From: an archaeon
GTDB taxonomy: Archaea; Iainarchaeota; Iainarchaeia; Iainarchaeales; CSSED10-239
NCBI GenBank assembly: GCA_035390665.1
Contig: DAOOUC010000003.1
Coordinates: 10,742 to 74,741, forward strand
DNA: 64,000 bases
Direction of reading: 5' to 3'
Under the pieces are notes generated by a model. The model made no database searches. It was not told the origin of the DNA and worked only from the letters and a program-made list of their open reading frames with translations. Made by a program: the position numbers and the translations under genes. Below are positions 2 through 40,532 of the stretch, one piece after another; the stretch's first letter is position 1; the number at the start of each line of letters is the position of its first letter.

Positions 2-676
2 GTTGAATATATTACTATTCCTTTAGGAATTATGATTAACAAAGATTATATAATTACAATAAGCTTTAGAGAAAATGAAAATATAGATGTTTTAAAAACA
101 AAGAAATTTAAACATGAAAAATCATTAGTTCTTTTAAGATTGTTACTTGTTTCTTCTAAAACCTATATTAAATATCTAAAAGAAATTGATGCAAAAATAA
201 AAAGTATTGAAGAAAAGTTCGAAAGTGTTCAGAGGAATAAAGAAATTTCTGATCTTTTAGATCTTAAAAAATCTCTTGTGTATTTTAATACTTCTTTGAA
301 AAGCGATCAAATACTTCTTGAAAAGATTGCAAGAAATAAAGATTTTGTTAATTCTGAAGATGATAAAGATGTTATTGATGATGTAATTGATGAAAATAAA
401 CAAGCAATTGTTGTTACTGCAATCTATAAGAATATTATTGCAGATGCTACTGATCTTTTTAACTCTGTTACTTCAAATAATCTAAATAAAACTATGAAGT
501 TATTAACTTCAATTACTGTTGTTATTGCAATCCCTACAATGATTGCTGGAATATATGGAATGAATGTCCCTTTGCCTTTCGATAATCATCCTCATGCATT
601 TCTTGTAATCATGGGAATAGTTATGCTATTTTCATTAATTGGAGTATTCTATCTTTGGAAGAATGACATGTTCTAG
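2..676 (+). CDS. corA: CorA-family Mg2+/Co2+ transporter, 5'-truncated by window edge
   Basis: Reading frame is open from the window start (ORF track starts at the internal ATG at 32). C-terminal two TM helices with the signature YGMNVPLPF (GMN motif) and a coiled-coil cytoplasmic part. Confidence 0.8.
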   Translation, partial: VEYITIPLGIMINKDYIITISFRENENIDVLKTKKFKHEKSLVLLRLLLVSSKTYIKYLKEIDAKIKSIEEKFESVQRNKEISDLLDLKKSLVYFNTSLKSDQILLEKIARNKDFVNSEDDKDVIDDVIDENKQAIVVTAIYKNIIADATDLFNSVTSNNLNKTMKLLTSITVVIAIPTMIAGIYGMNVPLPFDNHPHAFLVIMGIVMLFSLIGVFYLWKNDMF

Positions 677-745
677 AGCCGGTTGCGGTCAGCTCGCGCC
701 CAGCCAAATAATGTATTGTTCTAGAGCCGGTTGCGGTCAGCTCCC
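674..745 (+). repeat. Two tandem copies of a GC-rich hairpin element (TAGAGCCGGTTGCGGTCAGCTC) that begins at the corA TAG stop
   Basis: 674-700 and 722-745 are near-identical. They are GC-rich in a ~25-30% GC background. The same family occurs at 20642-20671 and 23281-23311. Confidence 0.7.
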
Positions 746-13241: not shown

Positions 13242-14651
13242 TTAATCAAGAGGAATAACGCATCTAAACCCAATCGAATCTGATTTATAACTTGGCGCCC
13301 ATCTTAAATTCATTGCAAAAACACCTGATGCATTTTCATCAAAATGTGTTCCACCCCTTACTATTGCGTGAACATTTGAATTATATGCAAGTCCTGAATT
13401 TGCTTGTCCTGGAGCAATATAAATTTTTCCAACACCTTGTTCTGAATCATAATCATTAAATGGTTTTATTTGACTATATGTTAAAGAACCCGATCTTGCC
13501 AAATTTGTAAATTCATACCAATCTCTTTCAAATAAATCTTCAAATCCTGGAGATCCATGCTGTACACCGCCACTATCATTTCCTTTATTATTTAAATCAG
13601 GATAATCCTCGCAGGTTCCATCACAACTTTCTATAATTGTTAAATCTACCCATTCTGCTAAATTTCCAGAGAAATCCCATATTTCTTCGCCATTAGATAA
13701 AACTAACTTAGCAAGTTCATTTCTATTATCTCCATAATCAATTAAACCCTTTAAATAGGATGCAGAACTATCTATTCCTACATTTCCTTTTTTTAATGAC
13801 CCTATTCCTGTTATTCCGCTATCCCAATTAGTTGAAACTTGTTCAATATTTCTTGCAATTGTCATCCATTCATCATTTGTTATTAAATGTGCACCAGAAT
13901 TCTCACAAATTTTTTTTACTGCACATAAATTTAAAATGGTTTCTGGAGGATCAGAAATTTTGTTTTCTAAAACCGCCATTGAACCATTAATTTCATTTCC
14001 TTCTTCACACATTCCATCAGAAATATATCCATCATTTATTCTAGCTTCATATTTTTGAACACAAAATTCAGAAGTATTATAATTTGGATTCCCTGGAACT
14101 GTAATATATCCATCTGGACAGCTTGTTGTTACTATTTCAGGATTATAACTTTCACAATATCTAAAATCAAAATCTTGTGAATTAACTTTTAATTCTATAT
14201 ATTTATTCTCAATGGTATATAAATTTAAAATAAAAGAACTTGATGGAAAACAAGCAATTGGAATTATAGTCAAATCTCCGCTATTTATTTCAATTTGTGG
14301 ATTTAATGCAATTCTTTTTGTAAGATATTTAGCATCCTGCAATTGATTATCAACTATAGTATATCCTTTAATAACTAAATCTTTTGTACTTGTATTTTGA
14401 ATTAAAACAGATCTATTTATTGCTTTTTTTACAAATATAAATCCTGTTATATCATCTTTTTCTGCTATTATATCTTTAGATGAAGACAATGTTGTATTTG
14501 TAAAATTTGTTCCCCAATTTATTATTATAGTAACTATAACTACACAAATTACTACAAGTAAAATAATTGCAATAATAGGAGATATTGCTTTTTCTTTTGT
14601 TCTCATATCTTTCTTTCTTTTTTTATTTAATTTATTTTTTTTTAAATTCAT
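13242..14651 (-). CDS. Pilin-like (class III signal peptide) surface protein with C-terminal formylglycine-generating-enzyme/SUMF1-like domain
   Basis: N-term basic stretch then KAISPIIAIILLVVICVVIV (archaeal prepilin-type signal). C-term HLITNDEWMTIARN, GNLAEWVDL, VRGGTHFDEN, SIGFRCVIPLD (FGE-sulfatase domain hallmarks). Confidence 0.6.
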   Translation of the reverse strand: MNLKKNKLNKKRKKDMRTKEKAISPIIAIILLVVICVVIVTIIINWGTNFTNTTLSSSKDIIAEKDDITGFIFVKKAINRSVLIQNTSTKDLVIKGYTIVDNQLQDAKYLTKRIALNPQIEINSGDLTIIPIACFPSSSFILNLYTIENKYIELKVNSQDFDFRYCESYNPEIVTTSCPDGYITVPGNPNYNTSEFCVQKYEARINDGYISDGMCEEGNEINGSMAVLENKISDPPETILNLCAVKKICENSGAHLITNDEWMTIARNIEQVSTNWDSGITGIGSLKKGNVGIDSSASYLKGLIDYGDNRNELAKLVLSNGEEIWDFSGNLAEWVDLTIIESCDGTCEDYPDLNNKGNDSGGVQHGSPGFEDLFERDWYEFTNLARSGSLTYSQIKPFNDYDSEQGVGKIYIAPGQANSGLAYNSNVHAIVRGGTHFDENASGVFAMNLRWAPSYKSDSIGFRCVIPLD

Positions 14652-14673
14652 TTAAATTACCTTAAAATAAAAA

Positions 14674-14904
14674 ATAGAGCTGACGGGATTCGAACCCGCA
14701 AAACAAGAAATAAATTAACCATGATAACGCACCCTTTCGGAATGCACGACCAACATAAGTTAGGATCACTACCTACTCCCTACAATTACTTGCAAAGAGA
14801 ACACCCAAAGGGCTTATACTCCTTCGTTTTTTACATCATCTTCAATTTATTTCCATAAACTGGCTTCGGAGACCAGTGTTTCTTCCAACGAAACTTCAGC
14901 TCCT
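14674..14904 (-). tRNA. tRNA-Arg(CCG) interrupted by a ~155-nt intervening sequence between anticodon arm and T-arm
   Basis: 5' part (revcomp of 14862-14904) GGAGCUG-AA-GUUU-CGUUGGAAG-AAAC-A-CUGGU-CUCCGAA-GCCAG. 3' part (revcomp of 14674-14698) GCGGG-UUCGAAU-CCCGU-CAGCUCU-A. The acceptor 5'/3' strands pair 7/7 (one G-U). Confidence 0.5.
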
Positions 14905-14932
14905 ATATAAAATGTAATTAATTATCTAAAGC

Positions 14933-15265
14933 TCACCGGGGACTAATTTCTTCTATTTCATCTTCTAAAATATTTAATGATTCAAAAATATAATTGTCTT
15001 CTGTTATTTCATCAAAATAAATTGTATCATCAATTTGTAATTCATTTATTGTAATGCTATCATTTACTATTTTTGCTTTTTCAAACCTATCTGAAGAATT
15101 GTTTACAGAATTATCTGTTTTTTGATTATTTAAAACAATAGTTCTGAAATCAATATTTTTGGATAAAAATAAAAGCATAACGAGAAATAAAAAAATCACA
15201 GCAGTAATTTGCTCTTTTTTATTCTGATATTTTCTATATCTTTGTCTATTTATTTTTATATTCAT
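14933..15265 (-). CDS. Small membrane protein (single TM), hypothetical
   Basis: 110 aa, basic N-terminus then AVIFLFLVMLLFL. Confidence 0.3.
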   Translation of the reverse strand: MNIKINRQRYRKYQNKKEQITAVIFLFLVMLLFLSKNIDFRTIVLNNQKTDNSVNNSSDRFEKAKIVNDSITINELQIDDTIYFDEITEDNYIFESLNILEDEIEEISPR

Positions 15266-37144: not shown

Positions 37145-37264
37145 TTTTCTTTTTCTGAATTAGTCTGATGACAAGAGAAAAAAATTAAAAACACAAGAAA
37201 AGTTTTCACTTTTCTTTTTTAAGAAAAAAATCCGTTTTAAAGATTTTATTACGGATAAAGAAAA

Positions 37265-37280
37265 TAGGAAATTGTGCCAT
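37265..37280 (-). other. 3'-flanking half of the 23S rRNA processing stem (perfect 16-nt inverted repeat with 40371-40386)
   Basis: TAGGAAATTGTGCCAT here, ATGGCACAATTTCCTA at 40371-40386. The flanking TTTGAAC / GTGTTCAA may form the bulge-helix-bulge. Confidence 0.7.
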
Positions 37281-37299: not shown

Positions 37300-40330
<3,031 letters not shown>

Positions 40331-40370
40331 CTTTTCATTTAATAGTCAAATTTTATAATAAACTTGAACA

Positions 40371-40386
40371 CATGGCACAATTTCCT
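40371..40386 (-). other. 5'-flanking half of the 23S processing stem
   Basis: See 37265-37280. Confidence 0.7.
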
Positions 40387-40532
40387 ACTCTCTCATCCCG
40401 TAAATGTAATAATTGCCAAAAATGCTAAAGTAACAAATTTGGACAATGACTTTTCTAAAAGATTTAAAACGGTCGAATTCCGATGCTAAAAGAACTTAGC
40501 CGGAATAACATAATTATGTAGCGACAGGTTTA

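Follow-up and report, generated by a model that had tools for sequence, protein, structure and literature searches.

A tRNA-Arg(CCG) gene interrupted in its variable loop by a long, structured insert in Iainarchaeota-like DPANN archaea

A complete tRNA-Arg(CCG) lies on the minus strand at 14903..14675 of the 64,000 nucleotides of archaeal DNA analysed here as a whole (the window), with its halves separated by an intervening sequence of about 155 nt in the variable loop, and the same interrupted gene is found in four further lineages of Iainarchaeota-like DPANN archaea (L164, L038/L042, L043 and L002). We read the insert as an intron that is non-canonical and unusually long and whose recognition module is atypical, a reading to which we assign a probability of about 0.5. 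An earlier report of such an interrupted tRNA gene was not found in the searchable literature.

The 5' exon (14860..14903, minus strand) reads GGAGCUG AA GUUU CGUUGGAAG AAAC A CUGGU CUCCGAA GCCAG and comprises the 5' strand of the acceptor stem, the D arm and the anticodon arm, with the anticodon CCG (14869..14867) in the loop CUCCGAA. The 3' exon (14675..14699, minus strand), which follows 160 nt further on, reads GCGGG UUCGAAU CCCGU CAGCUCU A and supplies the T arm, the 3' strand of the acceptor stem and the discriminator A, with CCA not encoded at the 3' end. The acceptor strands pair at 7/7 positions, namely by six Watson-Crick pairs and G1.U72. Directly after the discriminator, a U-rich tract read from the sequence, UUUUUUAUUUU (14664..14674, minus strand), is a putative archaeal-type terminator.

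In a permissive search, the Rfam tRNA model extends end to end over the interrupted gene (model positions 1-71; 28.1 bits, E = 0.00098) and places the entire insert between its positions 44 and 45; the default Rfam scan had missed the gene because 28.1 bits is below the gathering score of 29. This default scan and ARAGORN reported four other tRNAs and the 23S rRNA in the window, and ARAGORN did not call the tRNA-Arg(CCG) on the unaltered sequence. The intron options of ARAGORN, suggested in a preliminary description of this DNA as a means of detection, found nothing either; they allow only introns in the anticodon loop. Upon deletion of the insert in silico, ARAGORN calls tRNA-Arg(CCG) in 22/22 deletions that leave a variable loop of 3-6 nt, and a half-tRNA scan recovers the gene with a variable region of 160 nt. 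These results bear out the preliminary description in its view of a single tRNA-Arg(CCG) that is interrupted in cis, with 7/7 pairing of the acceptor strands, and in its placement of the interruption in the variable loop instead of at 37/38, while the limits it gave, 14674-14904, are right in location but one base too wide at each end and came without the strand.

With respect to the amino acid specificity, C35/G36 and A20 are arginine identity elements, and the tRNA carries C35/G36 together with an A at D-loop position 20. In addition, one CGG codon of L002 aligns with Arg in two homologues, and as this sole informative column shows Arg there is no sign of reassignment of CGG, the CGG codons being too few for a test of reassignment. 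The presence of the identity elements and the aligned codon make an arginine identity of the interrupted tRNA plausible.

Five distinct versions of the gene are at hand: the window version (identical in the ENA and Logan contigs L040 and L041) and those of L164, L038/L042, L043, which is truncated at the 5' end, and L002 (equal to L029); L165 is a 5' fragment only. In the homologues, the order around the interrupted tRNA is EF-2, a small ORF, the tRNA and a pilin-like gene. The exons are identical at 63-68 of 69 positions (91-99%), also between lineages that lack detectable similarity in the flanks and in the interiors of the inserts. The 5' exon is invariant save for one D-loop base and three anticodon-stem pairs and the 3' exon save for G57/A57 of the T loop; four lineages have CUGGU/GCCAG as the anticodon stem, and L002 and L165 have CUAAC/GUUAG, with the pairing kept. 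A metagenome scan with GATGATGTAAAA...GGTTCGAATCC yielded 15 loci, one of which (L029) is real, and scans of viral contigs returned ordinary tRNAs or chance matches only. A second copy of the tRNA-Arg(CCG) or of the insert, which the preliminary description had considered worth a search in the case of the tRNA, is present neither in the 64 kb window nor in about 330 kb of related genome loci.

Among the five full-length sequences, the variable region spans 156-170 nt and the insert about 151-166 nt. On the minus strand of the window, the insert starts with the 5' linker UUUAU (14855..14859), of which UUUA is invariant and the fifth base is U, C or absent, and which is unpaired in the minimum free energy fold. 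Thereafter, the 5' strand of a basal helix, GGAAAUAAAUUGA (14842..14854), pairs with the 3' strand UUAAUUUAUUUCU (14706..14718) to give an A+U-rich stem with 13 bp in 5/6 sequences and 12 positions in L002. On top of this helix is located an invariant module. Its 5' side, AGAUGAUGU (14833..14841), is identical in all six sequences and contributes AG to a 2x2 internal loop, AUGAU to a helix with AUCAU and GU to the junction. Its 3' side, AUCAUGGUU (14717..14725; AUCAUAGUU in L002), provides AUCAU to pair with AUGAU as well as GG for the internal loop and conforms to AUCAU(G/A)GUU in all homologues, with one variable base (G/A) and all others invariant; its last two bases, UU (14718..14717), are shared with the start of the 3' strand of the basal helix. 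The internal loop sets AG opposite GG (AG opposite AG in L002), and the 5-bp AUGAU/AUCAU helix does not vary in any sequence. The insert closes with the 3' linker UGUUUU (14700..14705), which is UGUUU or GCUU in homologues.

The variable interior of the window insert (14726..14832, minus strand; 107 nt, 43% G+C) consists of several hairpins, two of which have GNRA loops (GUAA and GAAA). The minimum free energy fold of the precursor is a cloverleaf with an extra arm (-72.5 kcal/mol, z = -4.5). Throughout the homologues the interiors are 102-118 nt long, have 38-54% G+C as compared with 27% for the genome and are structured in all clades, with an architecture that differs between clades. Three clades of interiors can be distinguished, with 68-72% identity inside a clade, while alignment between clades is no better than with shuffled sequence (z -1.4 to +1.3). 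The module of AGAUGAUGU and AUCAUGGUU has no other occurrence in the window or the related loci, and 120 matches in viral contigs are due to chance as they are without flanking stem or tRNA context. As a separate observation, the L043 insert displays two runs of six U (about 75-125, plus strand), each inside a hairpin, which might cause premature termination of the precursor in archaea.

In the framework alignment, 98.2% of the cells form the proposed standard pairs compared with 37-55% when the partners are slid, and both partners are changed in six pairs, of which two belong to the anticodon stem and four to the basal helix of the insert. As the basal helix uses G-U pairs, the structure of the insert can be assigned to the tRNA strand. 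Because the exons are conserved and the pairs show compensatory and covarying changes, the comparison of sequences identifies the interrupted tRNA-Arg(CCG) as a functional RNA gene that is vertically inherited, and as neither a chance juxtaposition nor a fresh pseudogene; selection acts on the tRNA body. A gene without function, inactivated by insertion of a small mobile element with inverted ends or decaying as a pseudogene, would be consistent with the inverted repeat of about 20 bp formed by the ends of the insert, with the accessory nature of the host cassette, which is missing from most relatives, with the near absence of CGG codons and with the two U6 runs in the L043 insert, which could terminate transcription. 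Such inactivation is nevertheless very improbable, since the exons have kept their identity while the flanks were randomised, the changes in the anticodon stem are compensatory, the covariation of the basal helix with G-U pairs indicates a constraint at the RNA level on the tRNA strand, and the window and related loci hold no second copy. For a miniature inverted-repeat element in particular, the single copy in the window and related loci and the RNA-level covariation of the stem led to rejection.

That the insert hosts a known functional RNA, such as a C/D box guide RNA, a self-splicing group I intron or a self-cleaving ribozyme, is suggested by the resemblance of AUGAUGU to a C box (RUGAUGA) and by the two hairpins with GNRA loops, but can be given hardly any credence. 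Among the box-like motifs pointed out in the preliminary description, GAUGAUG is part of the invariant AGAUGAUGU, while GUGAUC is unconserved; the same description saw no clear D box, and indeed CUGA is absent from the insert of every homologue. As there is no D box and AUGAU simply forms a plain helix with AUCAU, the insert is not a C/D RNA; a candidate C/D box sRNA likewise fails for want of a k-turn partner, with AUCAU engaged in Watson-Crick pairs and Rfam snoRNA matches at E >= 0.5. A long tRNA intron with a C-box-like AUGAUG is known from the tRNA-Trp of Euryarchaeota, but that intron is located at 37/38, has a bulge-helix-bulge and carries C, D', C' and D boxes with guides, whereas the present insert resides in the variable loop and has neither a D box nor a k-turn partner.

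No Rfam family other than tRNA falls below E = 0.1 for the insert in four homologues, and a catalytic core is excluded because sequence conservation between clades is lacking in the interior. Group I introns in tRNA genes possess a P3-P8 catalytic core and usually interrupt the anticodon loop, and known group I introns are longer than 155 nt, with about 200 nt or more. The insert, with 155 nt, an unalignable interior and a site in the variable loop, gives no Rfam match to a group I intron at E <= 10. A k-turn, a loop E, a tetraloop-receptor and a hammerhead were dismissed upon inspection as identities of the invariant module, as GA is missing from the partner strand and GAAA is unconserved. 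Small ORFs in the insert (AUGAUGUAA in sense and one of 44 codons in antisense orientation) are not conserved in the homologues. A template repeat of a diversity-generating retroelement was also rejected, as the C terminus of the downstream target-like gene is not similar to the insert; a reverse transcriptase, an Avd gene and a template repeat are all absent from the window.

The nearest known kind of gene is the archaeal tRNA gene with a non-canonical intron, for example at 45/46 in Thermoproteales and Nanoarchaeota, which shares with the present case an insertion in cis in the variable loop of an otherwise complete tRNA, conserved ends with a free interior and a DPANN host with reportedly broadened endonucleases. 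Removal of the insert restores a complete cloverleaf tRNA, and conserved ends around a free interior are the pattern expected of an intron that is recognised at its base. In the proposed pathway, the precursor would fold as a normal cloverleaf with a rod-like arm at the variable loop, composed of the 13-bp A+U-rich helix, the 2x2 AG/RG internal loop, the invariant 5-bp helix and a lineage-specific multi-hairpin cap. A protein enzyme, possibly an archaeal splicing endonuclease of relaxed specificity or else a different structure-specific nuclease, would cut the rod out of the precursor, with the invariant base module serving as recognition element instead of a canonical bulge-helix-bulge, and ligation of the exons would give a tRNA of 72-76 nt for the very rare CGG codon. 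Excision, enzyme and cut positions are all predicted; full excision would create an exon junction of the type ...GCCAGUUUA|(U)GCGGG.

Position 45/46 is among the known non-canonical intron sites of archaeal tRNAs (2014 review, PMC4090602), the endonucleases of DPANN archaea possess an extra loop that is associated with more disrupted tRNA genes (PMC5829648), and adjacent introns are known to be removed one after the other (PMC8450103); a known site, broadened DPANN endonucleases and sequentially removed introns make the reading as a long intron plausible. On the other hand, a probability above 0.5 is not warranted, as the splice-motif test fails, the size is beyond the reported range, the G+C content resembles that of stable RNA and the tRNA core is unusual. 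Archaeal tRNA introns are reported to be 11-129 nt long (PMC4090602), with medians of 12-25 nt, compared with about 151-166 nt here, so the preliminary description rightly considered about 155 nt long for such an intron. The interior, with 38-54% G+C in a genome of 27%, is more typical of stable RNA than of RNA to be discarded, which argues against an intron. Further differences from known non-canonical introns are the missing bulge-helix-bulge, the invariant 9+9 nt module and the G+C-rich structured interior.

The splice motif was searched for by enumeration of all candidates under a rule that takes, per strand, a helix, a 4-nt central helix, a 3-nt bulge cut after its second base and a helix, in agreement with the location of the first two anticodon bases in the central helix of known precursors (PMC4090602). 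A canonical bulge-helix-bulge is absent from the junctions because the 5' and 3' linkers cannot pair, and the homologues have no canonical motif in common that gives a product of 72-78 nt. The motif that the preliminary description had expected at -GCCAG|UUUAUGG- and -UUGUUUU|GCGGG- consequently does not exist, and relaxed candidates come at +7 to +14 kcal/mol; no accepted relaxed form (hBH, HBh') of normal quality is present at the exon-intron junctions. The best junction candidate common to five homologues has its cuts behind UUUA and between G49 and C50 to give a product of 72 nt with a variable loop of 3-4 nt. It has 3/4 central pairs and an exon helix of 2 bp, requires the anticodon and T stems to open, shows a 3' cut shifted by one base in the window versus its closest relative and costs +7.8 to +14 kcal/mol versus the fold of cloverleaf plus arm. 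The invariant motifs were also paired with the exons, which yields weak duplexes only (-3 to -7 kcal/mol); for this pairing, UGGU/GCCA versus UAGU/GUUA in L002 is a single possible covariation event. Of the candidates enumerated in this A+U-rich RNA, more than 30 have a perfect 4-bp central helix, and as dozens are of similar formal quality no single candidate is significant.

A reference bulge-helix-bulge from within the genome was sought at the flanks of the 23S rRNA, which form a processing stem of about 30 bp (about 40330-40400 and about 37240-37275, minus strand), and no clean motif was detected there. The split tRNAs of Nanoarchaeum equitans are comparable in that tRNA parts are joined by a helix of about 12-14 bp of non-tRNA sequence, but these helices end in a relaxed bulge-helix-bulge, whereas the parts here are located 160 nt apart on one strand in a continuous folded sequence.

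The enumeration also revealed an HBh'-like candidate inside the insert, with UGAU/AUCA as central helix and cuts GU|N and UR|G, which is present in all sequences. Only the variable interior would then be an intron, cut at a relaxed HBh'-like motif made of invariant bases, on the 5' side after AGAUGAUGU (14833|14832) and on the 3' side at AUCAUG|GUU (14720|14719). The product would be a class-II-like tRNA of 111-116 nt that keeps the 13-bp helix as its variable arm, with an invariant 10-nt loop, AGAUGAUGUG. This is the sole candidate at the same place in every homologue. What is retained corresponds to the conserved and covarying part and what is removed to the variable interior and the six intron-side bases AUCAU(G/A), so that the single variable position of the module (G/A) is among the bases removed; removal of adjacent introns in sequence, as mentioned above, has precedent. 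Excision of the interior only is still improbable, as the outer helix has just 2 bp, the required conformer costs +7 to +8.5 kcal/mol and the wealth of perfect central helices makes any one of them weak evidence. Furthermore, we know of no tRNA-Arg with a variable arm of 13 bp.

Alternatively, the insert is kept altogether, whereby the variable arm of the mature tRNA would reach the giant size of about 155 nt in the manner of an rRNA expansion segment and, with CGG almost unused, would be tolerated or exploited; we regard this as unlikely, although several observations are in line with it. If tRNAs naturally bear an extra arm, it is at the variable region and nowhere else, the fold of cloverleaf plus arm is strongly favoured with no competing splice motif, and the interior behaves like an expansion segment in that its sequence turns over entirely while G+C content, hairpins and length are kept. 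The tRNA core is atypical as well: A8, C14 and G21, invariant in all homologues, with C14-G21 facing each other in a possible 5-bp D stem (GUUUC/GAAAC; 14878-14896, minus strand), deviate from standard class I tRNAs and differ from the canonical U8/A14 of the four other tRNAs of the window. Finally, CGG accounts for 2/18,553 codons in the window, so the translational demand on the tRNA-Arg(CCG) is minimal, which could permit an odd tRNA architecture.

Against a fully retained arm, variable arms of more than about 25 nt are not known to us from any tRNA, and a domain of about 50 kDa at this place should clash in the ribosome. Moreover, the clades differ in the architecture of the interior, and the basal helix, weak and A+U-rich with linkers of 4-6 nt, is unlike the variable arms of class II tRNAs. 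The insert occupies the position, between 44/45 and 48, of the extra stem-loop that the latter (Leu, Ser and Sec) retain in the mature tRNA, and its helix is supported by covariation, but the class II arms have flanking linkers of 1-2 nt. Nematode nev-tRNAs are similar in combining such an arm with an anticodon that is unusual for arm-bearing tRNAs (PMC4033280). In comparison to both groups, the present arm is 5-10 times longer, branched and attached to an Arg isotype.

That the insert, or at least the 13-bp helix with the AGAUGAUGUG loop, stays in a tRNA-Arg(CCG) with an expansion-segment-like arm is a tentative proposition that we hold to be rather unlikely. Such a tRNA might be kept for a role beyond or besides the decoding of a codon that is used about once per 10,000, which could be protein recruitment or autoregulation via the conserved CGG codon 26 nt upstream. 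It would represent a new tRNA architecture and, to our knowledge, the first tRNA with an expansion-segment-like arm.

If, as we favour, the insert is spliced as a long non-canonical intron, the size of archaeal tRNA introns would reach beyond 150 nt, and their junctions would include one that lacks a recognisable bulge-helix-bulge. Either a new type of substrate would be accepted by DPANN splicing endonucleases or another route of excision would exist, with the invariant 9+9 nt module as a concrete recognition element that is open to test. In more general terms, missing tRNAs in DPANN genomes have been attributed to unrecognised disrupted genes (PMC5829648), and as standard tRNA finders miss genes such as the one described here, these help to explain the 'missing' tRNAs of DPANN annotations.

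The genomic context places the interrupted gene in an accessory cassette. The window has 27% G+C and an archaeal 23S rRNA, and the closest relatives of its EF-2 (74-96% identity) come from genomes labelled Candidatus Iainarchaeum, 'ainarchaeum' and Forterrea, all DPANN archaea. On the minus strand, the order is S7, EF-2, a 110-aa ORF, the tRNA, a 469-aa pilin-like/FGE-like protein and DXR. The 110-aa ORF (14933..15265, minus strand) belongs to no Pfam family, and the 469-aa protein (13242..14651, minus strand), encoded by the last gene of the cassette, has a pilin-like N terminus and a weakly FGE-sulfatase-like C terminus. This cassette of about 2.3 kb (13242-15265, minus strand), consisting of the ORF, the tRNA and the pilin-like gene, is found in the window, L164, L002 and the short contigs L038, L042 and L043, but is absent from most relatives (L001, L003, L004, L015 and L016 were compared). 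In most of the relatives, EF-2 is followed by DXR after about 400-700 nt, with DXR missing or farther away in a few. The site of the cassette is between EF-2 and a conserved intergenic region with TTGGACAA repeats and a tiny basic ORF (MAAKKK...) before DXR. EF-2 identities among cassette bearers (94.9% between window and L164, 94.5% between L164 and L002) and among the cassette-free L001, L003 and L004 (93-95% mutual) are compatible with a single gain of the cassette in one sub-lineage.

Upstream of the tRNA, a G+C-rich element of 13-15 nt, AGUCCCCGGUGAGCU (equivalent to AGTCCCCGGTGAG(CT); 14930..14944, minus strand), forms an imperfect palindrome that is unique in the window. It is located 25-26 nt upstream of the tRNA (30 nt in L165) and is identical in the window, L002, L038, L042 and L164, with one change in L165. 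The element coincides with the last codons of the 110-aa ORF, Ser-Pro-Arg(CGG)-stop, whereby its Arg codon, one of the two CGG codons of the window, is read by the adjacent downstream tRNA. A promoter, the site of a regulator or a translational link are possible functions of this element.

In the search for an intron-free orthologue via distant paralogues of the pilin-like gene, retroelement loci were found instead. A paralogue with 32% identity to the 469-aa protein, encoded in L166 (2501-6165), L167 and L168, which belong to the assembly of L004, is a target of a diversity-generating retroelement; two Avd-like genes and a reverse transcriptase come after it, with variable and template repeats that are 83% identical over 114 nt. 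Elsewhere in the window, a perfect 26-nt direct repeat, GTTCTAGAGCCGGTTGCGGTCAGCTC, is found at 670-695 and 718-743 (plus strand), with the copies 22 nt apart; it lies in a G+C-rich island right after an ORF, is not matched by any Rfam family and has no further copy in the window.
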